From assembly GCA_014728085.1 (NCBI GenBank), contig WJMF01000164.1, positions 1,418 to 65,417 of the forward strand: a stretch of 64,000 nt of DNA. The letters run 5' to 3'. This document shows, piece after piece, positions 7,497-28,005 of this stretch (its first letter is position 1; each line of letters starts with the position of its first letter). The translations under genes were made by a program, and so were the position numbers. This DNA comes from Candidatus Zhuqueibacterota bacterium (GTDB lineage Bacteria; Zhuqueibacterota; Zhuqueibacteria; Residuimicrobiales; Oceaniaggregativiventaceae). The notes beneath the pieces are model-generated. The model saw only the letters and a list, made by a program, of their open reading frames with translations. It made no database searches and was not told the origin of the DNA.

Positions 7497-7563
7497 ACGG
7501 TTTGTTGTATGTAACGACTTGCTTTTTTCATCAAATTCTTATAAGTTTGAGAGTTGTGTAAAA

Positions 7564-10095
7564 ATGAGTGAGGTTATTGTGACAGCAAAAAAACGGGTTA
7601 AAAAGGAAAAACCGCAAGAATCGTCGACTTTTACGCCAGACCAAAAGCCGGCGTTGTTTATGATCATTATCCTGGCGATTTTATTAATCGTGCTTTATCA
7701 CCAGGTTATACTCGGGGGTATGGTGTTTCAGCCCCCGGACCGGATGACAACTCTGGCACTGCAGCCGTTTGTTCAGCAGGCTCTTAGTCAGGGTATTTAT
7801 CCTTTGTGGTGTCCCTATGTTTTCAGCGGCATGCCTTCATTTGCCAGCATGCTCACGGTTCCCATGATAAATATTGTTGACTGGTCGATGCGTACGGTTC
7901 TGCAATTCATTTTGCCACGGACGCCGGATCCCAACTTTATTTTTATTTATCTTAATTTTCTTTTACTTGCGGCTACTTTGTATTTGCTCCTGCGTCAGCA
8001 AAAAATCTCACCATTGGCGGCTTCTTTTTCCGCCATCGCAGTGACTTTATTACCACAGTTTGTTGCGTTTGTCTCATTTAGTCATAATACCAAATTTTTG
8101 TCCGTGGTTTTGATACCGTTGATTTTTTATCTCACCAAAAAAATGTTTGAAGAACGCTCTCTGTTGTATTTTTGTCTGACGGCGCTGGCCATCGGCTTTC
8201 AGCTCTTTCGGGCTCATGTTCAGGTGACGTATTATACCTTTCTAATGTTAGGGATATATTTACTGTTTACAGCTGTTACGCGGTGGCGCGAAAATCGCTC
8301 CTTAAAGCCCTTTTTAATTAATGCCGGCCTGTTGATCGGAGCTATCGCTGCCGGGCTATTGCTATCATCCGTAATTTATTTGTCTGTATATGAATATCAA
8401 CACTATTCGATCCGGGGATCCAGTGAAAATAGCGGCCTCGATTATGATTATGCCTCCAGCTGGTCTTTTCATCCGCTTGAAATGGTAACCTTTATCATTC
8501 CTTCTTTTATGGGATTTGGCGGCCAGACATATTGGGGAAAAATGCCATTTACCGATTATCCCCTCTATTTTGGTATCGGGGTATTGTTTTTGGCAGGACT
8601 TGCACTCGTTTTACGCCGGGATCGAAAGACATGGTTTTTTACAATCTTGGCCATTTTTGCTTTGGTGGTCTCTTTTGGAAAACATTTACCGGTTCTTTAT
8701 ACGCCGATGTTCAAGCTATTGCCTTTTTTCAATAAATTTCGGATTCCCAGTATGATTCATATACTGTTGAATTTTTCAATGGTTATCCTGGCGGCATATG
8801 GATTGCAGGCACTTTTCGATTATCGGAAGCAATTGGCGAAAATGAAAAAGCCGGTAATAACACAGTCTCTGCGGCGTTATTTATTTATTTTCCTGGCGGT
8901 GGTGGGGATATTTTTGTTGTTTATGTTGTTTGCCAAATCGCTTTTTATCGAATTGATTGCCGAAAGCAGAGCGCGTATGCAGCCGGCGCAACGGGAACTC
9001 GCTTATAACAATGCTTTTCTGGACAGTTTTAAAGCTCTCATTTTTATCGCCATTTCTGTTTTTATCATCTTTCAATTTCTCAGGTTTAAACTTTCCAGAT
9101 CGTTTCTCGGGGTGACCCTGATCGTCTTGATGGTAATCGATTTTTGGATTATCGATTTTAAAATTATCAATCCTCGTCCGCCTGCGAGCGAGACGGCTCA
9201 TTTTTCCGGTAATGCTGCTGTCAATTACATAAAAAAGGATAAATCGCATTATCGAATTTTTCCGGTTCTGGACAACAAAGGCGGTAACTGGTACGCCTAT
9301 CACCTTATCGAAAGCATCAATGGCTATTCTGCAGCAAAGTTGCGAATTTATCAGGATTTCCTCGAAGAAACCGGCTTTGCATCACAGGATCAATATGGGT
9401 TGAATCCCTTTATCGCCAATTTCTGGAATTTGTCGGTTCAGGAAGGAAAGTTAACGCCACAAAGGAAACCGCCACAGGCCCGCAATCAGAACCAGATCGA
9501 TTTTCACAACACGGTTCTCGATATGCTCAATGTAAAATACCTGGTGATAAATTATCTGCCCATTCCCGATCCCGGATATCAGAGGGTTCAGCATCAGCAA
9601 CCCTGGGTTTTTGAAAACGTTGACGTATTGCCGCGTGCTTTTTTCGCCGATACCGTGCAGGTGATGGAAGGGCGGGAGACGATATTTTCCTATATGAAAA
9701 GTGGAAAATTCGATCCCCGTCAAACCGCAATTGTGGAGAAAAATCCTCCTTTTGATATACTACCATCCGATCGCAACCGGGTTCGTTTGCAAGATTTTGG
9801 GCTGCATCATATTCGTTTAAATGCGGAGGTATTCAGTCCGACGGTTATGGTGCTGAGCGAGATTTACTATCCGGCAGGATGGCGGGCCTTTGTTGATGGT
9901 GTCGAAACCCCAATATATAAAACCAACTATATTTTACGTTCAGTTTTTCTCGAACCTGGTAATCACACGATCGAATTTATATTCAAGCCAAAACGTTTTT
10001 TTCTGGGAATATGGATCAGTATTGGTACGCTTTTGTTGTTGTTAATACCTGTCGGTCTTTGGTTGTATAGGACCAAATATAAAAAACGGGCGTGA
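7564..10095 (+). CDS. YfhO-family membrane protein (GT-C-type glycosyltransferase), paralog 1
   Basis: The ORF is 7519..10095 (TTG); the likely start is ATG 7564. About 13 predicted TM helices plus a C-terminal soluble domain, about 850 aa like B. subtilis YfhO. Shares conserved C-terminal motifs with the ORF at 11675..14056. Confidence 0.8.
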   Translation: MSEVIVTAKKRVKKEKPQESSTFTPDQKPALFMIIILAILLIVLYHQVILGGMVFQPPDRMTTLALQPFVQQALSQGIYPLWCPYVFSGMPSFASMLTVPMINIVDWSMRTVLQFILPRTPDPNFIFIYLNFLLLAATLYLLLRQQKISPLAASFSAIAVTLLPQFVAFVSFSHNTKFLSVVLIPLIFYLTKKMFEERSLLYFCLTALAIGFQLFRAHVQVTYYTFLMLGIYLLFTAVTRWRENRSLKPFLINAGLLIGAIAAGLLLSSVIYLSVYEYQHYSIRGSSENSGLDYDYASSWSFHPLEMVTFIIPSFMGFGGQTYWGKMPFTDYPLYFGIGVLFLAGLALVLRRDRKTWFFTILAIFALVVSFGKHLPVLYTPMFKLLPFFNKFRIPSMIHILLNFSMVILAAYGLQALFDYRKQLAKMKKPVITQSLRRYLFIFLAVVGIFLLFMLFAKSLFIELIAESRARMQPAQRELAYNNAFLDSFKALIFIAISVFIIFQFLRFKLSRSFLGVTLIVLMVIDFWIIDFKIINPRPPASETAHFSGNAAVNYIKKDKSHYRIFPVLDNKGGNWYAYHLIESINGYSAAKLRIYQDFLEETGFASQDQYGLNPFIANFWNLSVQEGKLTPQRKPPQARNQNQIDFHNTVLDMLNVKYLVINYLPIPDPGYQRVQHQQPWVFENVDVLPRAFFADTVQVMEGRETIFSYMKSGKFDPRQTAIVEKNPPFDILPSDRNRVRLQDFGLHHIRLNAEVFSPTVMVLSEIYYPAGWRAFVDGVETPIYKTNYILRSVFLEPGNHTIEFIFKPKRFFLGIWISIGTLLLLLIPVGLWLYRTKYKKRA

Positions 10096-11674: not shown

Positions 11675-14056
11675 ATGAATGTTTTCAACCAAAGATCCAA
11701 AACGACAATCATCGCCGGCATGGTGATAACAGTCATATTGCTTTTGCTCATTCAATACCAACCCGCTTTGCTGCAGGACACCCGCATCACTGATCTCAAT
11801 CACAAGGCATTGCTGAAATACGATGAAAAACACGACCAAACGGGAGAGTCCATATCTCATCCACAGTGGCTACCCTATATTTTCTCCGGCATGCCCTTGG
11901 TAACGGATATATTAATTGTTCCAAAGACTGATATTGTGGATCAGGGGTTGCTGGATTTTTTCAACTGGTTTTCTTTTGCGCTCGGCGAGCCATTGATTTA
12001 TTTGCTAATCATCAACAGTGTAATATTTTCATGGTTCGTATTTATTTATCTAAAACAACAAAACCTTTCTACCGAATCGGCTCTTTTCCCGGCTCTGACG
12101 CTTCCATTTTTACCGCTTTTTACGGATTTGACAACGCACGGACAGCACTCGGTTTTTTATACATTTACATTATTGCCGGTTTTACTGGTTGTTATATCAA
12201 AATTATCGCAAAAGCAGAATGCTCTGTATTTATGCCTGAGTGTATTGCTCTTTGGATTCATGTTCCTGCGGGGAAGTTTATCACTTTCAGTGATGATTAT
12301 TGTCTTTCTGGTGTTTGTATTTTTGTTGTTACGTCCGGCAGCGGGCAGTGGCGACAGGTGGTTTTTCCTTTTCTTGATGGTTGTCGCTATTACGGCAGGT
12401 TTTTTGCTGTCTGCGGTACACTATTTCCCCGTGATTGCCGGTTCCTCTTTTCTAACCGAGTTGACGCAAGAATCCTTACATTTTGAGAATCCGTTCAAAG
12501 CATTTAGCGCGGTAATCCCTTCTTTTCTTCAAGTCACATCGTCTGGAACGGATTTTTCACGGCTTTATATGTACCTGGGAGGGGTTATCTTTTTCTTGGC
12601 AGGGATTGCGATGTTTTTTCGGCGGGACCGCCAAACCCGTTTTTGGAGCTTTGTTGCCCTGATCTGTTTTCTTCTTTTTTCAAGTGGATTTATGCTTATC
12701 AAACCTGTTTCGCACGACATTTTGAATCTGGTTTATTTGTTTTCGGCCTTTGCTTTTTTCGTTTTGGCCGCCTATGGAATTCAGTATCTGCAAGAGGTAT
12801 CCGTCGTGCAGAATGGCAACAAAAAATTTCTAAGAATCTATTTTTTTGTTTTTTTTGCAGTAATGTTGCTTTTTCTTATCTATCTGATTTTTGCCCGCAA
12901 TCAGTATTTAAATGTCATCGCCACTGAGGGCGTTTTTCTGACGATTCCTGAGCGAATTCAGCATTATTCCACTTTGTTATTTGATTTGATTCGAATCTTG
13001 TTTTTTCTGATTATAACATTCTATTTTATCGGACTCTGTTTGGAGCAAAAAGTAGGAATTCGCAGTCTGGTGCTCATTTTAGCGGCTATTGCTTTATTGG
13101 ACTTTGGATTCATCAACAGGCGCCTGGTTGAAACAGATTTGCATTATAACGAGGATACATATTTCAATGCCACCCCAACTGTTTATTTTATAAAATCCGA
13201 CAAGAGTATTCATCGGGTTTTGCCCATTCAAAACACAAAATGCGCCAACTGGTATGTTTTGCATGAAATTGAGAGTATTGCCGGTTTTGCACCTCAAGTC
13301 CCCGTGTTTTATAGCAGCTTTCTTGAGCAAACGGGATACAGGTATCCGTTTAATGGGTTTTTGGCCAAGTACTGGCGCATGACCATGATCAATAAAAAAC
13401 CAGAGTGGGAAGCGGTTCCCCTCATGGAAATACCGGTAAACCGTTTGAATTTTGATTATGCCATGCTGGACATGCTTAATGTAAAATATATTGTTTTGGA
13501 TTCGCTGCAAATTCCTGATCCGCGTTATGAGCTGGTCTATGATACCGGTAGACAACGCGTCTATGAAAACACACGTGTCTTGCCCCGTGTTTTTTTCGCC
13601 GATACGGTGAAAGTGATTATCGGTAAATCTCACATTTTTGAATATATGAAGAATAGACATTTTGATCCCCGCAAGACAGCGATCCTGGAGGAGGATCCGG
13701 GATTTACTCTGTTTGATGCGGATAGCAATCAGGCAGAGATCGTTTCTCTTTCGGCGCATGAAATTGTCATAGACGCCAATGCCCATAAAAACACGATTAT
13801 GCTATCAAGTGAGCCCTATTATCCCGCTGGTTGGAAAGCATATATCGATGGTATTGAGACCAGGATTTATGTAGCGAATTCCGTTCTGCGCTCAATTTGT
13901 TTGCCGGCCGGAGAACATCGTATTGTATTTCGATATCACGCAAGTGGCTATAGTTTGGGAAAGTGGACGAGTCTGAGCGTACTTTTATTCATTTTGGTCT
14001 TGCTGCTTGCCGTGCTCGCAGTATATATTAGAAATCAAACACAGAAGGCGTTATGA
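11675..14056 (+). CDS. YfhO-family membrane protein (GT-C-type), paralog 2
   Basis: 793 aa and multi-TM. Matches YfhO1 in LDMLNVKY[LI]V, P[RA]FFADTV, YYPAGW[RK]A[FY][VI]DG[VI]ET[PR]IY and the C-terminal TM segment. Confidence 0.8.
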   Translation: MNVFNQRSKTTIIAGMVITVILLLLIQYQPALLQDTRITDLNHKALLKYDEKHDQTGESISHPQWLPYIFSGMPLVTDILIVPKTDIVDQGLLDFFNWFSFALGEPLIYLLIINSVIFSWFVFIYLKQQNLSTESALFPALTLPFLPLFTDLTTHGQHSVFYTFTLLPVLLVVISKLSQKQNALYLCLSVLLFGFMFLRGSLSLSVMIIVFLVFVFLLLRPAAGSGDRWFFLFLMVVAITAGFLLSAVHYFPVIAGSSFLTELTQESLHFENPFKAFSAVIPSFLQVTSSGTDFSRLYMYLGGVIFFLAGIAMFFRRDRQTRFWSFVALICFLLFSSGFMLIKPVSHDILNLVYLFSAFAFFVLAAYGIQYLQEVSVVQNGNKKFLRIYFFVFFAVMLLFLIYLIFARNQYLNVIATEGVFLTIPERIQHYSTLLFDLIRILFFLIITFYFIGLCLEQKVGIRSLVLILAAIALLDFGFINRRLVETDLHYNEDTYFNATPTVYFIKSDKSIHRVLPIQNTKCANWYVLHEIESIAGFAPQVPVFYSSFLEQTGYRYPFNGFLAKYWRMTMINKKPEWEAVPLMEIPVNRLNFDYAMLDMLNVKYIVLDSLQIPDPRYELVYDTGRQRVYENTRVLPRVFFADTVKVIIGKSHIFEYMKNRHFDPRKTAILEEDPGFTLFDADSNQAEIVSLSAHEIVIDANAHKNTIMLSSEPYYPAGWKAYIDGIETRIYVANSVLRSICLPAGEHRIVFRYHASGYSLGKWTSLSVLLFILVLLLAVLAVYIRNQTQKAL

Positions 14057-15261
14057 AAAAACCGGATCTTTCTTTTCATAAAACCATATATATGTTTTCC
14101 GGGACCCTTAAAGGGCTCTTTTTTATCCTGGTTGTAATTTGCATATTGGTTATTATCATATATATCCAGAGTTTAATCAATGATCTGAGGGCCCAAACCA
14201 GGGAATGGATAGAACTGCGGGTTCAGGAGATACAACAGCTGGCTTCGGATGAACAGGCGGGAGACAACCTTACCTGGGGTCTGGAGAATATCATCCAAAA
14301 AACAGAGCTGCCACTGATTGTCACCGATCAGAAAGGCAATCCGGCGGCATGGTCAAACATCGGTGTAGCCCGTGATGATTGGTCGCCTGAAGCTATAAAT
14401 GAAGTACAGCGGCTGTTGAAAAAAATGCAGAGCAACAACCGGCGGTTCCCGATTACCTATAGGGGGCAGGTGGTCAATTATCTCTATTATGGTGATTCCA
14501 GGCTTACCACCCAGTTGCGTTACCTGCCTTTTATAACTATCTTCGGCCTCGGATTATTAATCTTTGCGGCCTTTATGGGATTCAGTAGCATAAAACATAG
14601 CGAACAACGCTATGTATGGGTGGGTATGGCCAAGGAAACCGCTCATCAACTCGGGACCCCTTTATCATCGCTGATGGGATGGCTTGAGATCATCAAGTTG
14701 CATCCGAATGATCCGTCGCGCATTAAACAGATGGCCGAAGATATGACCATTGATGTTAACCGTCTGGAGCAGGTCGCGGCGCGGTTTTCAAAGATCGGAT
14801 CGAAGGCAGAACTTACTATACAGGAGATCCATCCTGTTCTTCAGGAGGTGATTGCTTATTTTCAAAAGCGCTTACCCCAGAAGAGCAAAGATATTCAGCT
14901 GATAGCGGATTTAAAACCGGTTAAGCGGGTGGCTCTGAACCGGGATCTGTTTGTATGGGCAGTGGAAAATTTAATCAAAAATGCCCTTGACGCGGTAAAG
15001 CGCAGAAATGGTAAAGTAACCATTCGAACCGGTATGCTGGAGGACGAAAACAAGATTTATATTGATATCGAAGATACCGGTGTTGGGATTCCTGTGCAAA
15101 ATCGTCGAAATGTTTTCAAGCCAGGCTATAGTACAAAAAAGAGGGGATGGGGATTGGGCCTGAATGTGACAAAGCGCATTGTGGAAGAGTTGCACAAAGG
15201 AAGGGTATTCATCAAGGAGACTCATATAGACAAAGGGACAACCATGCGGATCGTGCTGTGA
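14053..15261 (+). CDS. Two-TM sensor histidine kinase (HisKA + HATPase_c)
   Basis: ATGA overlap with YfhO2. TM helices at about residues 20-40 and 150-175. H-box AHQLGTPLSSL, N box NLIKNALDA, G1 DTGVGIP, G2 GWGLGL. Confidence 0.88.
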   Translation: MKKPDLSFHKTIYMFSGTLKGLFFILVVICILVIIIYIQSLINDLRAQTREWIELRVQEIQQLASDEQAGDNLTWGLENIIQKTELPLIVTDQKGNPAAWSNIGVARDDWSPEAINEVQRLLKKMQSNNRRFPITYRGQVVNYLYYGDSRLTTQLRYLPFITIFGLGLLIFAAFMGFSSIKHSEQRYVWVGMAKETAHQLGTPLSSLMGWLEIIKLHPNDPSRIKQMAEDMTIDVNRLEQVAARFSKIGSKAELTIQEIHPVLQEVIAYFQKRLPQKSKDIQLIADLKPVKRVALNRDLFVWAVENLIKNALDAVKRRNGKVTIRTGMLEDENKIYIDIEDTGVGIPVQNRRNVFKPGYSTKKRGWGLGLNVTKRIVEELHKGRVFIKETHIDKGTTMRIVL

Positions 15262-20461: not shown

Positions 20462-21406
20462 TTATTCCTCTTCTTCAACGTATGTCTCTTTTTCCCAGGT
20501 CTTTATTTTTTTTCTATTGCGTAGCCAGACGAGCGGAATGGCGATCAAAAAAAGCAAAATAAACAAAAGGCCCAGATAATTCTGAATATCATAGAGCCAT
20601 AGCCAGCGGTAGTTTTGGCGTACATAATTCTGCCATTCCTTTTCAAAGGCTGCAAAATTGCTACCGGTGGCATGCAGGAAGATTTTGTCCATGTTCTCGT
20701 TGTTTCGCAAACCTGTCAGTATTTTCTGAATGGCATCTATATCATAGGTCTTTAAAATATATTCAACAACACTAAAACTCTGCTGATAAGCGAGTTCTGC
20801 TTTAAAACGATGAAACGAGATCACATCATCGAGCTCCCGCAATGGAATAAGAGAGTTGGTAAAGACAGCTTTGGAGAGTGCGGTCATGGTTTTCCACTTG
20901 ACATCTCTCGAGTAAAACAGCGCAAGTCCTTCATCAAGCCATCTGGGGATATAGCGATTACCGATAACTTTATGCAAGACGACGTGCAGTATCTCATGCG
21001 CCAGTGTGATTTTTACACTGGTTTCACTTCTATTCCACCGTGGTGATTTTAACAGAATAGTGTTTACGGCGGGAAAGGCAAACGCTTCTGCCCAATTGGG
21101 AGGATCTCCTCTAAGGTAAGAGCGGAACTGATCTCGATTGGCTGCAATTATTACCTTCACCGTATCTTTTTGCTCGACCTGTAAATCATAGGCTATTTCC
21201 TGATACAAGATTTGGCAATGGTTGAGTGTTTGTTTGGCATAAAGAGAATCAATTGGGGCGTAAAAGACGTTAATATATCCCTTACTCGCCGTGTTGAGAG
21301 GAGGAATCCGGGGTTGGGCGAATCCACATTGAATCGCGATGTGGAGAAAAAAAAGTAATCTGATAGCGACTTTCATAGACAATTCCGTTATAGAATTTGA
21401 TTGCAA
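20462..21406 (-). CDS. Putative membrane-anchored zinc metallopeptidase (HExxH...E, peptidase_MA-like)
   Basis: Signal peptide (likely start MKVAIRLL). HEILH followed 19 aa later by DEGLA (gluzincin-like third ligand). Single C-terminal TM helix and acidic tail. Confidence 0.6.
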   Translation of the reverse strand: MQSNSITELSMKVAIRLLFFLHIAIQCGFAQPRIPPLNTASKGYINVFYAPIDSLYAKQTLNHCQILYQEIAYDLQVEQKDTVKVIIAANRDQFRSYLRGDPPNWAEAFAFPAVNTILLKSPRWNRSETSVKITLAHEILHVVLHKVIGNRYIPRWLDEGLALFYSRDVKWKTMTALSKAVFTNSLIPLRELDDVISFHRFKAELAYQQSFSVVEYILKTYDIDAIQKILTGLRNNENMDKIFLHATGSNFAAFEKEWQNYVRQNYRWLWLYDIQNYLGLLFILLFLIAIPLVWLRNRKKIKTWEKETYVEEEE

Positions 21407-21476: not shown

Positions 21477-22574
21477 TTAATTGTTATTTTTAACTTGTAA
21501 TAGATCTTTGGGAATACGGTTGATATTTTTTTTTGAGGTTTTTATAACAAGTGATGACGGTAATATTTTTTTTCGTCCGAGGTTTAGCAATGATGCAACC
21601 GGATTATGGATGATCTGTTTATCTTTGTTTTCTAACGTTGCGGATTGCTTTTGCTGTATATCGGGTTCTATCAGTACATTTTCATCCAGCAGAGTTTTAA
21701 TTTGACGCAGAGCGGTTAACGCATCGGTGTCACAAGACATAACACCATTAAAAATGGTTTTGGGTTTCCGGAAGGATCCGGCCAGGGTTTTTCCATCTAC
21801 GGCGTTTCTCAGGTCTTTTCGCAATTGTAAAAGATCGGATTTTTGTACCGGTATTGTATTTGCAAGGTTTTTCCAGAGGTCTGCTCTTTTCGAATGTTCT
21901 TTTACCAGATGGTTGTACGAGTATTCAATTTTTGCCGAAAGCATTGTGTTGGTGAAATGCAGCTTAAATGACCCTTCTGACCAAAGAACAAGCTTATACA
22001 AAGCGGTCAGGGGATCGAAATCATATAACCCTGCATTTACAACGATTCCCTTATTGACTGTTATTTTTCCTTCTAATTGTTCCTGTACCAAACGGATGAT
22101 ACCGCAGTTGCCGCCGATTTCAAACAGTTGTACCAGATCAAATATATTCATGTTTCTCAGACTGCCACTGCAATTGTCGCTGGAGGGTACCGCCCTGTGC
22201 ACTTTTTCAGATTTTTCTGATAATATCAACTCAATTCTGGCGACCAATTCTTCTGTATAAAATGGTTTTGAGATAAAGTCATCGACATTGAGCGACATAA
22301 TCCTGATTTTGCTTTCTTGTGCGACTTTTTTGGCCGTGGCTATCAATGGAACCGTATGCAGGCGGGGATGGCTCTTGATCTCTTTAATGAGACCGATGCC
22401 ACAATAGGATGGATCAAAAACAATCAAATCAGGTTGTATGTTGTGCAGGGCGGATATAATATTGTTTTTTTCCATTACTGAAACTTCAAAGCCGTTGTTG
22501 AACAGGGTCTCGAGCATTTTGCTTGTAATATTGTCGGCAAATGCGATAGTGATTTTGGGGTTGGTAAGGATCAT
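21477..22574 (-). CDS. Response-regulator receiver domain + DUF4388 (PATAN) domain protein
   Basis: REC features: ...AD, phospho-acceptor D in IVFDPSY, T in IATAKK, K in ISKPF. Then GSLRNMNIFDLVQLFEIGGNCGIIRLV, the DUF4388 signature. ATGA overlap with the upstream gene. Confidence 0.75.
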   Translation of the reverse strand: MILTNPKITIAFADNITSKMLETLFNNGFEVSVMEKNNIISALHNIQPDLIVFDPSYCGIGLIKEIKSHPRLHTVPLIATAKKVAQESKIRIMSLNVDDFISKPFYTEELVARIELILSEKSEKVHRAVPSSDNCSGSLRNMNIFDLVQLFEIGGNCGIIRLVQEQLEGKITVNKGIVVNAGLYDFDPLTALYKLVLWSEGSFKLHFTNTMLSAKIEYSYNHLVKEHSKRADLWKNLANTIPVQKSDLLQLRKDLRNAVDGKTLAGSFRKPKTIFNGVMSCDTDALTALRQIKTLLDENVLIEPDIQQKQSATLENKDKQIIHNPVASLLNLGRKKILPSSLVIKTSKKNINRIPKDLLQVKNNN

Positions 22575-24361
22575 TGTTTTTGCTGCCGTTTTGCGTAGGT
22601 TTTCAGAAGCGATTTTAAAATCGTTTTAATTTGATTTTTTTCAAGCTCAGCTATACTGTTCACTTGTTCGTGATTTTCCACATTCAGTTTTTTGCAGAGT
22701 CGATCGATGTTTGGCTCTTTGGCCGGATCTTGAGGCGATATAAAAGCGATCTGTACGGGAAATGAGTTTATTGTTTCTAGTGCTCTGAGAAGATATCTCA
22801 AATAATTGAAATTCGCCCTGGATTCATCTATAAGTAATAATATACCGATAAGAGAATCTTTCAAGCGTTCGATAACCGGGTCAAATTCTTTGCCAAGGGG
22901 TAATCCGAGAAGATTTAAGGAATATTTGTTTTTTATATTGATTACCCCACATGAAAATGGCGTTGAGTCTTTGGTATCTGATGGTTTTCGCGACACCGGT
23001 ACCAGTGTTTCTATAAACCGGGTACCAAGGTCAGGTTGATTGCTCAGAATCAGAATATGATTTTCCGATTTTGGGACAACAGAGGTTTTTTGGGGTTCGG
23101 CAGGCTGGATAATGGGATGAGGCTCTTCCTCATGTTGCTCTGGTACTTTGAGCAGCTCGTCCGCAGGATGAGGTGATTTTTCCGGCGGATAAACCATGCC
23201 GGAATCCTTTTTTTCGGTATTTTCGAGTTGCCAGTCATCTTCTTCAGCTGCTTGGCGGAAGATTGAAAACGGATCATTATCCATGTCGGAAAAATTTTCA
23301 GAATCCAGAACCGGGTATTCAGGGATTTCGCTTTTTGATCCCGTTTCCTCAACGATATCGGCCGTATCTGTGTCGGGAGCGGATTCTGGTTCGACAGATG
23401 AATCCTTTGGAACGTACAGAAATCCAAGATCGTATAATTTAACGATTCGTTTGAGCAAGTTAATTTCATCCATCTCGCTTTTCTGGAGTATTTTTTTCAA
23501 TGTTTTATGACCGTCAAACAGATTGACAAAATGCTCCAACTCTGGTTCCATTTCCTGACTGGAGACAATTTTTTGAAAATTTGTCGTTGTCATAAGGACT
23601 GCATCAAGAGGAGGAAGCTGGTGCAAAAGTTTTTGACGTTCATCCATTATCTTTGCTCCCTGAAGTAATAATCCTAAATTGCCTATTCTGATTTCATCGG
23701 GTTCTTCGACCGGATGAAAATCCATTGCGAAATGCCCCTGTTGCCAGGACATCATTTTATAAATTGCGTCTTCGGCTGCCAATTTGTGGAAACGAGCTGA
23801 GATCACCACTCCATTGCTGAAAAGAATACGGCCATTTGAACCGTTTTGTGACAGAGAGAGCGTTCCGGACTTTTTTTGAATTCCAAAGGTTTCGATGAGC
23901 TGAACGAGTTTCAGATTTTCGAGATTGCCCGAGAATTTTTGCTCCGTTTTTTCAAGCCTTCTGAGAATCATCTTGGTGCGGGCCACGATTTCTCTGGCGT
24001 GAATGGGTTTAACGATATAATCTTTCGCCCCGAGTTTCAAGCTTTTTTGTTTGTGCCAGATATCGCTTTTTTTTGTCAAGAACAGAACGGCCGGTTTGGG
24101 TGTACGGGTCACTTTTTGTACTTTTGATAGAATTTTATATCCATCGACCCCTTCAGCATCGATTTCAGTCAACACAGCGTCGTAACGATGGTGCTCAATT
24201 TTTTCGAATGCTTGCGCGTTTGAAGAGACCTGGTCGATGTTGATATTCGAACGAAAAAAATGGTCTGAAAGCATATCCAAATTATTGCTATCAACGTCGA
24301 CAAGGAGTACGTGTTTTTTGTTCATTTTAATCCTGAAAGGGAATCGTTGCCAGCCACTCAC
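22571..24361 (-). CDS. Response-regulator receiver + DUF4388 (PATAN) + acidic/Pro-rich linker + uncharacterised C-terminal domain
   Basis: Likely start MNKKHVLLVDVD (24325). REC acceptor D in VLTEIDAEGVDG and K in DYIVKP. DUF4388 signature GNLENLKLVQLIETFGIQKKSGTLSL. E/D/P-rich linker. About 130-aa C-terminal alpha/beta domain (LLLIDESRANF...). Confidence 0.75.
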   Translation of the reverse strand: MSGWQRFPFRIKMNKKHVLLVDVDSNNLDMLSDHFFRSNINIDQVSSNAQAFEKIEHHRYDAVLTEIDAEGVDGYKILSKVQKVTRTPKPAVLFLTKKSDIWHKQKSLKLGAKDYIVKPIHAREIVARTKMILRRLEKTEQKFSGNLENLKLVQLIETFGIQKKSGTLSLSQNGSNGRILFSNGVVISARFHKLAAEDAIYKMMSWQQGHFAMDFHPVEEPDEIRIGNLGLLLQGAKIMDERQKLLHQLPPLDAVLMTTTNFQKIVSSQEMEPELEHFVNLFDGHKTLKKILQKSEMDEINLLKRIVKLYDLGFLYVPKDSSVEPESAPDTDTADIVEETGSKSEIPEYPVLDSENFSDMDNDPFSIFRQAAEEDDWQLENTEKKDSGMVYPPEKSPHPADELLKVPEQHEEEPHPIIQPAEPQKTSVVPKSENHILILSNQPDLGTRFIETLVPVSRKPSDTKDSTPFSCGVINIKNKYSLNLLGLPLGKEFDPVIERLKDSLIGILLLIDESRANFNYLRYLLRALETINSFPVQIAFISPQDPAKEPNIDRLCKKLNVENHEQVNSIAELEKNQIKTILKSLLKTYAKRQQKQ

Positions 24362-24467
24362 TTATAAAAGCTTATTCTTTATCCCTCCGCTCAGAAAACG
24401 GACAAGAATGTGATTATTTTAAAATTATTTAAAATTTATCGCTCTGTCAAGTTATTTCTGACTAAAA

Positions 24468-24500
24468 GGGCCGGATGAGTGCTCGTCCGGCCTTTTTTTT
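24468..24500. terminator. Rho-independent terminator (11-bp GC-rich stem including one G:U pair, then T8 on the plus strand)
   Basis: GGGCCGGATGAG-TG-CTCGTCCGGCC followed by TTTTTTTT. Preceded by AAAAG, so it can act bidirectionally. Lies between the zf gene stop (24512) and the REC-DUF4388 gene start. Confidence 0.7.
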
Positions 24501-24511
24501 GGAAGACAAAA

Positions 24512-25171
24512 TCAGGTTTCCCAGAGGATCCCCTTTAATATTTTTTCAAAAGAGGTTTCTGTTTCTGTGGCAGGTCCCTTGTGCAAATATAAAATCTGTT
24601 CGTGCAAATCTGATACGCTAATATAAGGGATGTGAGCAGCTCCTATGCTGTTGAAAGATACGCGTTGGATTGTCGGAAAATCTATCGATACACGGCTGTA
24701 ATCAATAGGGGTCGGATTCCACAAATATACCAGATTCGATTTTTGTTCAAAATCGGTGATAAACCGCAGAATAATTTTGTCTCTGGGCGTTTGTGCGAGG
24801 TTGTATTCAAATAGTTTGGAACGACCCTTTTCTCCCTGTGCTGTGAAGAGCAGGCGCAAGCGATAGGGATCACCATGTCCCAGCATTTTCGGGCCCTGAG
24901 GATCGCAAATAAAGAGGCTGAACAGGGACTGATTTGCATGCAATGATTTTGCAAAACTCAGAACGCGATTTGATATCGGCTTGTTCAATTCGCGGGCCAG
25001 AATATGATAGAAGAGTTGATACTTGCGGGCTTTGTTGCGACAATCCGGGCAGTTTGCCAAGTGTTCCTTGAGTTGCTTTGAATTTCCATCAGCATGTCCG
25101 ATAAGAGAATACATTTCAAGATGTGTTTTTTGCGGACATGTTTGCTTGATTTCATTCATAATTCGATTCAA
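24512..25171 (-). CDS. zf-HC2 (putative anti-sigma factor-type zinc finger) protein
   Basis: N-terminal HLANCPDCRNKARKY fits the H-x3-C-x2-C zf-HC2 motif of anti-sigma factors. 219 aa, no obvious TM. Confidence 0.55.
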   Translation of the reverse strand: MNRIMNEIKQTCPQKTHLEMYSLIGHADGNSKQLKEHLANCPDCRNKARKYQLFYHILARELNKPISNRVLSFAKSLHANQSLFSLFICDPQGPKMLGHGDPYRLRLLFTAQGEKGRSKLFEYNLAQTPRDKIILRFITDFEQKSNLVYLWNPTPIDYSRVSIDFPTIQRVSFNSIGAAHIPYISVSDLHEQILYLHKGPATETETSFEKILKGILWET

Positions 25172-25263: not shown

Positions 25264-26349
25264 TTACAATAGTTCTTTAAGGTGTTTGCGAAATTCCCGC
25301 TTGGCTACTTTGGCGAGGTATTCAAAAATTGAGCGCTCTTTGGTGCGATAATCTTGTTGGCTCAAGTGGGGCATATAATATCTGAGGTTTCTAAAATAGG
25401 AGGAACTATCTTTTTTTTGAATGAGGTCATACAAAACATCGCAAAGCGCGTTGGAATATATTTGCGCTTTGTCGTGCTTGAGTTTACCGGTACGAAGATA
25501 CTGCGAGTCAATTTTCTGGTTTACTTTTATCATTACCACGTGAACATAATTTTCAATCTCTTTCAGTTCTATCGTATCCTGCGGTGTCGGAACATGGTCA
25601 TCGGAAAGGATGCGCTCTTTGAACGTCTGGAATTTCATACTTCGCACCAGTTTGACAATAGTATCCAGGGCGATGAAATTTTGAAATTCTCTCAGTTCAT
25701 GCACATGTCTGAAAAGCTTTCGGATAGAGGTTGAAACTGAATCATTGGGATTATAGCTCTCTAAAAACCGTGAACTCAGCAAATCTTCGGGGATCGGGGG
25801 GTTTTGGCGCCGTATATATCTTTCGATTTGAGGGGTAATTTGAATATTATCGATTGGTATATTGTGTCCATTTGTATAGAACACATACTCTTTGCCCATG
25901 TCTTTAAACAGGCGCAGCGTGTCGGAATTCCGTACAGCCACCTTGATATTACGTACAATTTTTGCGCCTTCCGGATCTCTTTCGCGGAAGATCCTGGCCA
26001 GTTCTTGTTTGGTTTTTCGGACAATTAACCGCCGGGTTAAAACCAATATTTCAGCATCATTGAGGTCCGGCGTTTCGGAAAATTTTGTTTCATAATAACG
26101 TTTTAACTGTGGAAAGCAGTCGTTTTCATCACGACTGAAAAGCTCAGCAATACAATCGATAGCGAGGTCTTCAAGCTCCACGTCGGTATCGAGGCGTTCT
26201 CCGGTAATACGCTTTCCCAAAAGTTCCTGGAATTTGAGATAGCTGAGGGAGATTTTCTGGGACAGGTGAATGAATTGCATCAATTCGGTTTGATGATAGG
26301 TTCCGCTACAGATGTTGTGGACAAGTTCAGATAAGTTTGATATGCTCAT
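25264..26349 (-). CDS. Hypothetical protein (361 aa); possible highly divergent sigma-like partner of the downstream zf-HC2 protein
   Basis: No clear family. Weak resemblance to sigma region 2 (ELEDLAIDCIAELFSR...). Sits immediately upstream of the zf-HC2 gene on the same strand. Confidence 0.45.
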   Translation of the reverse strand: MSISNLSELVHNICSGTYHQTELMQFIHLSQKISLSYLKFQELLGKRITGERLDTDVELEDLAIDCIAELFSRDENDCFPQLKRYYETKFSETPDLNDAEILVLTRRLIVRKTKQELARIFRERDPEGAKIVRNIKVAVRNSDTLRLFKDMGKEYVFYTNGHNIPIDNIQITPQIERYIRRQNPPIPEDLLSSRFLESYNPNDSVSTSIRKLFRHVHELREFQNFIALDTIVKLVRSMKFQTFKERILSDDHVPTPQDTIELKEIENYVHVVMIKVNQKIDSQYLRTGKLKHDKAQIYSNALCDVLYDLIQKKDSSSYFRNLRYYMPHLSQQDYRTKERSIFEYLAKVAKREFRKHLKELL

Positions 26350-26589
26350 AATGCCGGCTACACTTTATTTAGTCTGCTTTTCATTTTCCCGCTCGACAAT
26401 TCGTGGGGATTCGCTGTTATGTTTTCGTGTTGCTCTGAATAACCTACGGGCCTGAAATAAAAGATACCGTCATAAAGAAGCAAATCATATACCAAACCGA
26501 GGCAAAACAATTTTGACATAAAGGTTTGTTTTTTTTGACTAAAAAAACAGGGAGGAACAACCCACACCTGTGAGAATTGCTTTACGGTG

Positions 26590-26618
26590 ATACACTGTCT
26601 CATCATGAGACAGTGTAT
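26590..26618. promoter_or_regulatory. Perfect 14-bp-arm palindrome (operator/UAS candidate or strong RNA hairpin)
   Basis: ATACACTGTCTCAT-C-ATGAGACAGTGTAT. It lies 5 nt downstream of the sigma-54 activator stop and about 240 nt upstream of the 25264..26349 gene start. Confidence 0.5.
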
Positions 26619-26622
26619 TGGG

Positions 26623-28005
26623 TTAGTTTTTTACCATGGGCAGGCCATATTTTTTGGCTTTCCGATAAATCGTAGCTCTGCCGATACCCAGTTTTTTGGC
26701 TGTTTTTGAGATATTGCCTTCGCATTCCAGCAGGGCTTGTCGCAAAGCTTGTTCTTCCAGTTTCTCTATCCATCCCGCCAGAGTTTTGTCCGATTCATAG
26801 ATTCGTTTTTCACCGAGAGCGCGAACCGCTGCCGGAAGATCGTTGGCAACAATTTCAGGGCCATTGGAGAGCACAACCGCTCTTTCAATAGCGTTTTCCA
26901 GCTCCCTGACATTTCCCGGCCAGTTATAGGCCATCATCAGTTCCAGGCCGTCGGCGGAAACACCCTCGATTTTTTTGTTTTCCTGAAGATTATATTTTCT
27001 GATAAAATGGGCAATCAGGGCCGGGATATCCTCTTTCCGCTCCCTCAGAGGAGGTAATTTTATCGGAAAAACGGAGATTCGGTAATAGAGATCTTCACGA
27101 AACTCGTCGTTTTTCATTGCTTCTTCTATATCCTTGTTGGTGGCTGAAATAACCCGCACCTCAACTTTGACCAATTCATTGCCGCCAACCCGTTCAAATT
27201 CCCGTTCCTGTAAAACCCTCAAGAGTTTTGACTGTGTTGCCGGACTCATAAGGCCGATTTCATCCAGGAAAATTGTGCCGCCGTTGGCCTGTTCGAATTT
27301 ACCGATACGTCTGGTCGTTGCGCCGGTAAAGGCTCCTTTTTCATGACCAAAGAGCTCGCTTTCCAGCAGCGATTCAGGAAGGGCGCTGCAATTGACAGCA
27401 ACGAATGGCTTGGCGCTGCGGCTGGAGGAGTGATGATGGATCGCTCTGGCAATCAGTTCCTTGCCGGTACCGCTTTCACCCTGTATTAAAACCGTAACAT
27501 TGCTGTCGACCACTTTTTCAACCGTTTTAAAAACATCCTGCATGCCACCGCACTGACCGATAATGTTTTCAAAAGCATATTTATTTTTCAATTCGGAACG
27601 CAACTCATCCACTTCTTTGCGGAGAGAGCTGTTCAGCAAGGCATTGTTTACGGTCACGATGAGACGATCGCGTTGAAATGGTTTGGTGAGAAAATCATAT
27701 GCTCCCAATTTCATCGACTGGACAGCCCGTTCTATGGTTCCATGAGCTGTCATCATGATAACCGGAATTCTCGAATCCATTTGTTTGATTTGTTTCAGAG
27801 TTTCCAGACCATCGATTCCGGGCATTTGTATATCGAGCAGAACCAGATCGGGGATGCTTTCCTTGAGAGAGTTCAAACACGCCTCACCGCTCAGGGCGGT
27901 TCTGATTTCATATTTTCCTTCTTTTCGAAGGCTGGCCTCGATCATTTTACCAATATTTTTGTCATCATCTACTACAAGAATTATGGGTTTTGGTAAATTT
28001 TGCAC
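26623..28005 (-). CDS. Sigma-54-dependent Fis-family response regulator (NtrC-type: REC + AAA+ + HTH)
   Basis: REC (VVDDD..., LLDIQMPGIDG, KLGAYDFLTKP). Walker A GESGTGKE. GAFTGA motif ESELFGHEKGAFTGA. C-terminal Fis HTH. GTG start with GGAGA SD. Confidence 0.92.
   Translation of the reverse strand: MQNLPKPIILVVDDDKNIGKMIEASLRKEGKYEIRTALSGEACLNSLKESIPDLVLLDIQMPGIDGLETLKQIKQMDSRIPVIMMTAHGTIERAVQSMKLGAYDFLTKPFQRDRLIVTVNNALLNSSLRKEVDELRSELKNKYAFENIIGQCGGMQDVFKTVEKVVDSNVTVLIQGESGTGKELIARAIHHHSSSRSAKPFVAVNCSALPESLLESELFGHEKGAFTGATTRRIGKFEQANGGTIFLDEIGLMSPATQSKLLRVLQEREFERVGGNELVKVEVRVISATNKDIEEAMKNDEFREDLYYRISVFPIKLPPLRERKEDIPALIAHFIRKYNLQENKKIEGVSADGLELMMAYNWPGNVRELENAIERAVVLSNGPEIVANDLPAAVRALGEKRIYESDKTLAGWIEKLEEQALRQALLECEGNISKTAKKLGIGRATIYRKAKKYGLPMVKN

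Follow-up and report, generated by a model that had tools for sequence, protein, structure and literature searches.

A tandem pair of predicted pseudo-receiver–PATAN proteins, one with a P-loop-less GTPase-like domain, in a Candidatus Zhuqueibacterota genome

A 64,000-bp stretch of contig WJMF01000164.1 (Candidatus Zhuqueibacterota bacterium; the whole stretch is referred to as the window) encodes two adjacent genes, here named LONG and SHORT, whose products each combine a response-regulator receiver domain (REC) with a PATAN (DUF4388) domain; LONG carries a further domain at its C-terminus. The locus raises the question whether these proteins operate as phosphorylation switches, and what the additional domain of LONG contributes. 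Comparative analysis indicates that neither receiver has a complete phosphorylation site, and that the C-terminal domain is a predicted derivative of a small-GTPase domain that has lost its P-loop. The host belongs to KSB1, now Zhuqueibacterota, within the FCB group, and not to the Bacteroidota; database entries for members of the protein family are labelled only 'response regulator' or 'DUF4388 domain-containing protein'.

Gene pair and receiver domains

LONG (22571..24325, minus strand) encodes 584 amino acids (aa) with the predicted architecture pseudo-receiver, PATAN domain, winged-helix-like module, acidic linker and pseudo-GTPase domain, and SHORT (21477..22574, minus strand) encodes 365 aa with a degenerate REC, a PATAN domain (residues 136-235) and a C-terminal region. 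The stop codon of LONG (TGA) and the start codon of SHORT (ATG) overlap by four bases (ATGA, 22571-22574, minus strand), and the tandem, overlapping REC-DUF4388 reading frames are thus present as described in an original prediction made from the sequence alone. The open reading frame (ORF) reported there for the long protein (22571..24361, minus strand) is also present and is open from a GTG at 24361, which would give 596 aa; the likelier start is the ATG at 24325 (MNKKHVLLVD, with AGGA before it), and the resulting 584 aa equal the length of an NCBI protein of a KSB1 bacterium (P0001) that is 100% identical to LONG.

Profile searches with Pfam place both proteins above the gathering cutoffs for Response_reg (PF00072, 30.2 bits; LONG 65.9 bits, SHORT 36.2 bits) and for DUF4388/PATAN (PF14332, 25 bits; LONG 59.2 bits, residues 132-230; SHORT 42.9 bits, residues 136-235), which confirms the DUF4388 signature in both. 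REC comes first and PATAN after in LONG and SHORT alike. These domain assignments are near-certain, and the two proteins are paralogues.

The REC of LONG comprises residues 1-127 (23945..24325, minus strand). In a HMMER alignment to the solved receivers PhoP of M. tuberculosis and ArlR, residues D10, T84, Y103 and K106 are retained, and the acceptor position is occupied by Glu54 (codon 24164-24166), with LTEIDAEGVDG of LONG aligned to ILDVMMPGMDG of PhoP. LLVDVDSN of LONG pairs with LVVDDEAN, which places Val11 at the second acidic, Mg-binding position, and VLTEIDAEGVDG pairs with VILDVMMPGMDG. In SHORT, Asp54 and Lys103 are retained and D14 is present; Asn15 takes the Mg-binding position, Ala81 stands in the Thr column with Thr80 just before it, and the beta3-alpha3 loop is several residues shorter than in its orthologues. 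The claim that both proteins keep the Asp, the Thr and the Lys of functional receivers therefore does not hold for LONG and holds only in part for SHORT: careful alignment finds T84 and K106 but no acceptor Asp in LONG, and the acceptor Asp and the Lys but no Thr in its column in SHORT. That the receivers are functional is contradicted by E54 and V11 in LONG, by N15 and A81 in SHORT, and by the family norm.

This norm was read from 83 long-type homologues, with Glu at the acceptor column in 60/83 and Asp in 21/83 (mostly myxobacterial proteins and one KSB1 subclade), and from 30 short-type orthologues encoded by neighbouring genes, with Glu in 24/30 and Asp in 4/30; SHORT of the window is among the few short-type proteins with Asp. 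The Mg-binding column contains Asp in 3/83 long-type proteins, nearly all others having G, S, A, N or H, and in 0/30 short-type proteins. By these alignments both families normally have Glu at the acceptor, and both REC domains fit the pseudo-receiver pattern, neither having a complete phosphorylation site. The commonest substitutions in pseudo-receivers are D-to-E, DD2-to-Asn and T-to-Ala, and Glu can act as a partial phosphomimetic by contact with the Thr and Lys that are conserved (PMC12632262).

A classical phosphorylatable regulator pair, in which a histidine kinase such as the one encoded 6 kb away (14053..15261) phosphorylates both receivers and switches the PATAN outputs, would agree with the Response_reg scores above cutoff and with the residues retained in LONG (T84/K106) and SHORT (Asp54/Lys103). 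It is difficult to reconcile with Glu at the acceptor of LONG, conserved across the family, and Val at its Mg-binding Asp, or, in SHORT, with Asn replacing the Mg-binding residue, the shorter beta3-alpha3 loop and Ala where the Thr belongs. Moreover, no kinase was identified among the conserved neighbours in about 30 related loci, and the adjacent sigma-54 activator, whose REC is canonical-scoring (113.7 bits), is the likelier partner of any nearby kinase. We consider such a pair quite improbable, and phosphotransfer from the kinase at 14053..15261, as had been proposed, looks unpromising for LONG because of its pseudo-receiver pattern with Glu at the acceptor. The label 'response regulator' is hereby corrected for the family, and hunting for a cognate kinase is unlikely to succeed.

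C-terminal GTPase-like domain and other regions

The C-terminal domain of LONG (residues 421-584; 22574..23065, minus strand) was analyzed with an alignment of 35 homologous C-terminal domains (A1), which served as input for an AlphaFold model and for profile searches. The model (residues ~421-584) has a confident alpha/beta fold (pLDDT, predicted local distance difference test, 89.9; pTM, predicted template modelling score, 0.87), in accordance with the extra alpha/beta domain proposed for the long protein; strands (domain positions 6-11, 41-47, 51-60, 75-83, 107-112 and 138-141) alternate with five helices. A Foldseek search of the model against the PDB gave 295 matches at E <= 0.001, and the best 50 of these 295 are small or Era-type GTPases or complexes with them (probability 1.0, E down to 6e-6, TM 0.5-0.64). 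Among the matches listed are Arl1, Arf1, Arf6, Rab/Ypt, EhRho1, Era and the SR-beta/SRP receptor complex, as well as MglA of M. xanthus and T. thermophilus (6h17, 3t1q, 3t1o). Roadblock/LC7, one of two resemblances originally suggested, was rejected as an identity for the domain: there was no such Pfam match, and no Roadblock protein among the best 50 of the 295 fold matches.

The nucleotide-binding motifs of a G domain are replaced in LONG by SNQPDLGT (for GxxxxGK[ST], G1), LGLPLG (for DxxG/TVPGQ, G3) and ISPQ (for NKxD, G4). GxxxxGK[ST] occurs in 0/69 long homologues, the P-loop Lys, Ser/Thr and glycines being absent throughout, and one subgroup has an acidic DDD run in the former P-loop. 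When the A1 profile was searched against PDB sequences, only a marginal match to Rab12 was obtained (E 0.08); it is in register, with the family's 'G-t-d-d-d-l-r-k' opposite the Rab P-loop GSRGVGKT, 'gvsldkeF' opposite DTAGQERF, and 'GyillidasR' opposite GIILVYDITK.

An exhaustive search of the A1 profile against 1.84 billion cluster representatives returned 447 matches at E <= 0.001. The closer matches are P-loop-less C-terminal domains of proteins of 550-960 aa; matches further away (E 1e-26 to 1e-14; mostly 470-535 aa) have GxxxSGK[ST] at the start of the matched domain, and several exceed the cutoff of Pfam Arf (22.3 bits; e.g. P0164, 26.2 bits, and P0176, 31.3 bits). These distant relatives also match DUF4388, and P0153 and P0157 match Response_reg too. 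In a joint alignment the P-loop-bearing relatives are collinear with the family over the whole domain and have its hallmark motif, F/W-x-Y-x-x-Y-L, in common; the switch-II region of the relatives (YGVPVE, FGVSVD) sits where MglA has YTVPGQ, and the P-loop-bearing relatives are likewise without canonical DxxGQ and NKxD. A direct hhalign comparison of A1 with M. xanthus MglA gave a partial, non-significant alignment. Because the A1 profile reaches P-loop-bearing, Arf-matching (REC-)PATAN fusions that are collinear in the joint alignment, the C-terminal domain is a predicted pseudo-GTPase whose ancestor was an MglA/Arf-like G domain already present as a fusion with (REC-)PATAN proteins. The speculative guess of a P-loop-less GTPase-like fold has thus proved sound, through the AlphaFold model, the Foldseek matches and the profile bridge to P-loop-bearing relatives.

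The P-loop-bearing REC-PATAN-G relative P0153 (locus L083) has Lys at the receiver acceptor position (LVLYKVDL); the acceptor Asp therefore seems to have been lost earlier in the family than the P-loop.

It might be supposed that the C-terminal domain is a working switch that binds GTP or ATP non-canonically despite the loss of Walker A: its G-domain fold is intact and confidently modelled, some bacterial MglA groups deviate in G3 and G4 (PMC4316618), and canonical DxxGQ and NKxD are missing from the P-loop-bearing relatives as well. We regard this as improbable, given that the P-loop Lys, Ser/Thr and glycines are missing in 69/69 long homologues, that the acidic DDD run of one subgroup would repel phosphates, and that G1, G3 and G4 were lost all together.

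Between the receiver and the predicted pseudo-GTPase, LONG contains the PATAN domain (residues ~130-236; 23618..23938, minus strand; pLDDT about 90), followed by a winged-helix-like or helical module (residues ~243-303; 23417..23599, minus strand; pLDDT 85-93). This post-PATAN module was defined from a family consensus (alignment A2) and is strongly conserved (FxxLFDGxRxLxxI...LKRIVKLYxLGF; for LONG FxxLFDGxxTLxxI); a module of this type is present in both paralogues. The linker that follows (residues ~306-420; 23066..23410, minus strand) is acidic, Pro-rich and predicted to be disordered, as had been noted: it comprises 115 aa (16% E, 14% P, 10% D; net charge -21), with pLDDT below 50 at residues 312-351 and 362-418 in the full-length model (overall pLDDT 79.4, pTM 0.42), and its length varies from 81 to 403 aa across homologues. 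Pfam searches at E up to 10 with the isolated middle region of LONG, the C-terminal domain and the tail of SHORT gave nothing useful.

Two short motifs were observed outside the folded domains. Short-type proteins (loci L001-L034) share the C-terminal motif yL[TSN]K[SA][ED]LL[LM]IRxKL, often preceded by Arg-rich ERRxxDRR repeats and a 'SRIASFFKR'-like motif; the C-terminus of SHORT in the window (21477-21560) has the degenerate versions RIPKDLLQVK and NPVASLLNLGRKK. A motif resembling it, HPADxLLxV, is found in the linker of LONG in 8/72 homologues including the window (23148-23174), where it reads HPADELLKV and a short helix is predicted at residues 387-392. Both motifs may be docking peptides.

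Conserved module and candidate mechanism

For a comparison of gene order, one genome per species was scanned, ORFs were called, and BLASTP was run with the window proteins and those of two reference loci; 32 loci with true relatives were obtained, from genomes labelled KSB1, Caldithrix/Calditrichaceae or Ca. Coneutiohabitans (Zhuqueibacterota) and from several generically labelled metagenome-assembled genomes. In each of the 31 loci whose sequence extends far enough, SHORT follows LONG on the same strand, and in 29/31 a gene for a stand-alone G-like protein of 157-196 aa (pG) comes after SHORT (e.g. at L001:11086-11983 and L002:11614-12607), usually together with a gene for a helical protein. 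By hhalign (probability 98.9%, E 3.4e-17) the pG family and the G-like domain fused in LONG are homologous; most pG proteins lack the P-loop, and a few have a relic, GPPGAAKQ or GPKGSAKQ (GPxGxAKQ). In many loci a helical protein of 118-181 aa follows pG, and then Peptidase_MA_2 and LpxL.

The stand-alone pG and the small helical protein are missing only from the window and from L003, a relative with 92% identity to it; tblastn found neither pG nor the 124/131-aa helical protein anywhere in the window, and only 70 bp lie between SHORT and the peptidase gene. The pattern across loci indicates that the stand-alone pG gene was lost in the lineage of the window. The same three-gene order surrounds a P-loop-bearing relative, where genes for a 488-aa PATAN-Arf-like protein, a 384-aa PATAN protein and a 158-aa P-loop-less G-like protein are found, and the triad thus existed before the P-loop was lost. 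Gene order and homology make the LONG-SHORT pair the core of a module that is kept in genomes of KSB1/Zhuqueibacterota- and Calditrichota-like bacteria. In locus L009 (DAOOPF010000047.1) the whole cluster is perfectly inverted-duplicated and mirrored around ~9.1 kb, which is most likely an assembly artefact.

We consider it moderately likely that LONG-SHORT forms a phosphorylation- and nucleotide-independent PATAN adaptor module that relies on constitutive docking instead of switching. LONG and SHORT would form a stoichiometric adaptor complex that needs neither phosphotransfer nor a GTP cycle, and the overlap of their genes agrees with co-production. The pseudo-receiver with Glu would be locked into, or shifted towards, a probably 'on-like' state and offer a surface for interaction or dimerisation. 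The output would lie in the PATAN domains, which, by analogy with the PatA-type regulators of cyanobacteria, would bind a machine associated with the membrane: in Synechocystis the PATAN domain by itself binds PilB1/PilC of the motor for type IV pili and suffices for function, and orphan regulators of the PatA type largely do without phosphorylation (10.1101/2021.06.11.447907). The pseudo-GTPase on its tether would be 'frozen' for good and offer a platform for docking to a partner that once sensed the nucleotide state; candidate partners are the stand-alone pG in the relatives, and MglB/GAP-like (GTPase-activating-protein-like) or effector proteins. Genes for MglA and MglB are known to neighbour PATAN genes (10.1101/2021.06.11.447907; PMC4316618, Wuichet and Sogaard-Andersen 2014), and a polarity- or localisation-type role is for this reason the most natural reading.

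Several observations weigh against the adaptor mechanism. The 64-kb window contains no type IV pilus, gliding or MglB/Roadblock genes, so the target of the PATAN domains is pure analogy; an MglB/Roadblock gene was likewise absent from the related loci inspected. Confident packing between domains was not found in the full-length model of LONG, whose pTM is low (0.42). SHORT may be weakly phosphorylated, which is still conceivable because Asp54 is retained at the acceptor position, and the G-like domain may bind a nucleotide non-canonically. In addition, all loci are from one lineage of the FCB group (KSB1/Calditrichota-like), and the conservation of gene order may therefore partly be inheritance.

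REC+PATAN proteins, pseudo-receivers and MglA/PATAN gene neighbourhoods are already known. The PatA-type regulators of cyanobacteria (PatA, PixG, PixE, LsiR, TaxP) have the same two domains (PF14332 and PF00072), but in the reverse order, with PATAN at the N-terminus where LONG and SHORT have REC. LONG and SHORT further differ from them in being tandem paralogues, in the family Glu at the acceptor, in the distance from pilus genes, of which none is nearby, in their KSB1 host, in the winged-helix-like module, and in the acidic tether and G-like domain that one paralogue (LONG) adds. With the MglA family of the Myxococcus polarity module the C-terminal domain of LONG shares the predicted fold, and its switch-II LGLPLG resembles TVPGQ/GTPGQ in position; unlike MglA, it is fused to REC-PATAN rather than separately encoded, and G1, G3 and G4 are lost. 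Pseudo-receivers such as FrzS, ChxR and the plant PRRs (PMC4395418, PMC12632262) have, as LONG and SHORT do, a REC-scoring fold without the catalytic residues, and such domains work through protein-protein contacts (PMC12632262); no description of a pseudo-receiver family combined with PATAN and a pseudo-GTPase was found, and PATAN/DUF4388 has 0 occurrences in PMC12632262. Eukaryotic pseudo-GTPases, e.g. the Ras-like domain of the dynein light intermediate chain (PMC4359372), kept the Ras-like fold as a scaffold after the loss of motifs, but they are of unrelated origin and belong to eukaryotic hosts.

RomR of Myxococcus xanthus, part of a small-GTPase polarity circuit, consists of a REC, a Pro-rich linker and an acidic C-terminus and recruits MglA; like LONG, it has its receiver at the N-terminus and a long disordered, Pro-rich/acidic region after it. 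RomR is not known to contain a PATAN or a G-like domain.

In the searchable literature we found no fused REC-PATAN-G-domain family and no P-loop-less derivative paired with a stand-alone pseudo-GTPase, nor any such bacterial 'pseudo-GTPase' module; a text search returned no bacterial example of a pseudo-GTPase, and a search on motility in KSB1 found nothing. PATAN proteins and MglA-like GTPases are recurrent, poorly understood parts of the control of bacterial polarity and surface motility; their prior link was gene neighbourhood, and here it is a predicted physical fusion. With both switch chemistries, Asp phosphorylation and GTP binding, apparently lost from proteins that are still conserved phylum-wide, the family represents a natural experiment on non-switching domains, and its members, from P-loop-bearing to P-loop-less, are a ready evolutionary series for biochemical comparison.

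More tentatively, and with less confidence than in the adaptor function itself, a polarity-type circuit of receiver, PATAN, MglA-like GTPase and partner G protein might have become 'fossilised' in KSB1/Calditrichota as a signalling-dead, strongly conserved scaffold. The graded series would then run from an intact P-loop via a relic P-loop to none, and finally to the loss of the partner gene in the lineage of the window. If true, this would be a bacterial pseudo-GTPase/pseudo-receiver module that organises an envelope-associated machine by constitutive docking.

Transcription and gene neighbourhood

The neighbours of the pair encode LpxB, DUF374, LpxK, a sigma-54 activator, a weak zf-HC2 protein, Peptidase_MA_2, LpxL and two GT9 proteins. 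Upstream of LONG a promoter-like sequence is present (24422..24450, minus strand; TTGACA, 24450-24445, and TAATTT, 24427-24422, 17 nt apart), and between it and the preceding gene, for a ZAS-like protein, lies a GC-rich hairpin (24469..24492, minus strand; GGCCGGA-N10-TCCGGCC, then CTTTT). Most related loci have the promoter motif (CTTGACA...TAnAtT) and hairpins with T-runs at the same places; a generic scan did not report the motif. The conserved TTGACA-type promoter behind a terminator-like hairpin makes it appear that LONG-SHORT is transcribed from its own housekeeping-type promoter. A terminator-like site was not detected in the interval from SHORT to the peptidase gene, and read-through into Peptidase_MA_2/LpxL is therefore possible.

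The order LpxK, sigma-54 activator, a 361-aa protein (unk361) and the ZAS-like protein upstream of the pair is found in 24 loci, counting the window, and is absent from about nine (the L002 group), which have ExbB/ExbD and PorP/SprF-like genes upstream instead. In one clade, genes for cystathionine beta-synthase and gamma-lyase lie between the stand-alone pG and peptidase genes; as cysteine-metabolism genes interpose there, the downstream 'envelope' context appears to be an inherited arrangement of genes rather than a functional operon. Membership of an envelope-biogenesis operon, as originally proposed for the pair, is thus not upheld, in view of the pair's own conserved promoter behind a hairpin, the interposed cysteine genes and the lack of unk361/ZAS-like genes in about nine loci.

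The NtrC-like sigma-54 activator gene (26623..28005) is followed directly at its 3' side by a sigma-54-type promoter, TGGTATATGATTTGC (26480-26494, minus strand), upstream of the unk361 ORF (25264..26349, minus strand); TGGYAY-N5-TTGC precedes the orthologous 361-aa gene in 22/22 loci examined. unk361 is 45-68% identical across divergent loci and has many invariant residues (e.g. KTKQELxRIFxERDPEGAKIxRNI), and no Pfam, NCBIfam or PDB match was obtained for it; it represents an uncharacterised family that, on its promoter motif, is apparently controlled by sigma-54. A sigma-factor identity was rejected for unk361, with no profile or PDB match and no detectable similarity to RpoE, and a 361-aa protein upstream in L002 is unrelated to it and was rejected as its counterpart. 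The ZAS-like protein (219 aa; 24512..25171, minus strand) contains the HxxxCxxC motif as HLANCPDC and scores 18.7 bits against zf-HC2 (cutoff 22.2) and E about 0.03 against NCBIfam anti-sigma models; its orthologue is only 80-110 aa in several clades, and no sigma-factor partner was identified for it. An 82-aa ORF (26358..26606, minus strand) was discarded as a gene, having no homologue in any related locus and overlying the conserved sigma-54 promoter.

We examined in this context whether the pair regulates, or is regulated by, the adjacent sigma-54 activator/unk361/ZAS-like unit and couples the state of the envelope or of the lipopolysaccharide (LPS) to gene expression. The order activator, unk361, ZAS-like, LONG, SHORT in the 24 loci, the sigma-54-type promoter in all 22 loci examined, the 219-aa protein with HxxxCxxC, and the LPS genes on both flanks of the cluster speak for such a coupling. 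The hairpin and the independent TTGACA-type promoter between the two units speak against it, as do the L002 group and the P-loop-bearing relatives, which keep LONG-SHORT-pG without unk361/ZAS, the lack of detectable similarity of unk361 to sigma factors or anything else, the zf-HC2 match below the Pfam cutoff, and the break in the downstream 'LPS' synteny by the cysteine-metabolism genes in one clade. Such a coupling seems unlikely to us, and the constitutive adaptor remains the preferred account of LONG-SHORT.

The suggested link to the type IX secretion system (T9SS) and gliding was dismissed: no supporting gene is present in the window, the host is not a member of the Bacteroidota, and the remaining genes are housekeeping, polysaccharide and YfhO-like genes (LeuCD, HemN-like, LepB, LepA, an ABC transporter, polysaccharide and YfhO-like genes). 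A role in anti-phage defence was also rejected, since PADLOC returned for five cluster proteins only a generic REC match (PD-T4-6, E 5.5e-5).

The Peptidase_MA_2 protein (20462-21406, minus strand), which most loci keep downstream of the module, has a signal-like segment at its N-terminus and the zinc motif HEILH; a transmembrane helix lies at its C-terminus, and its tail is acidic (…YVEEEE). Two genes on the plus strand (7519-10095 and 11675-14056) encode large paralogous membrane proteins with only C-terminal YfhO-like matches; they flank a polysaccharide-biosynthesis flippase-like gene, and the second overlaps the histidine kinase gene (14053..15261) by four bases.

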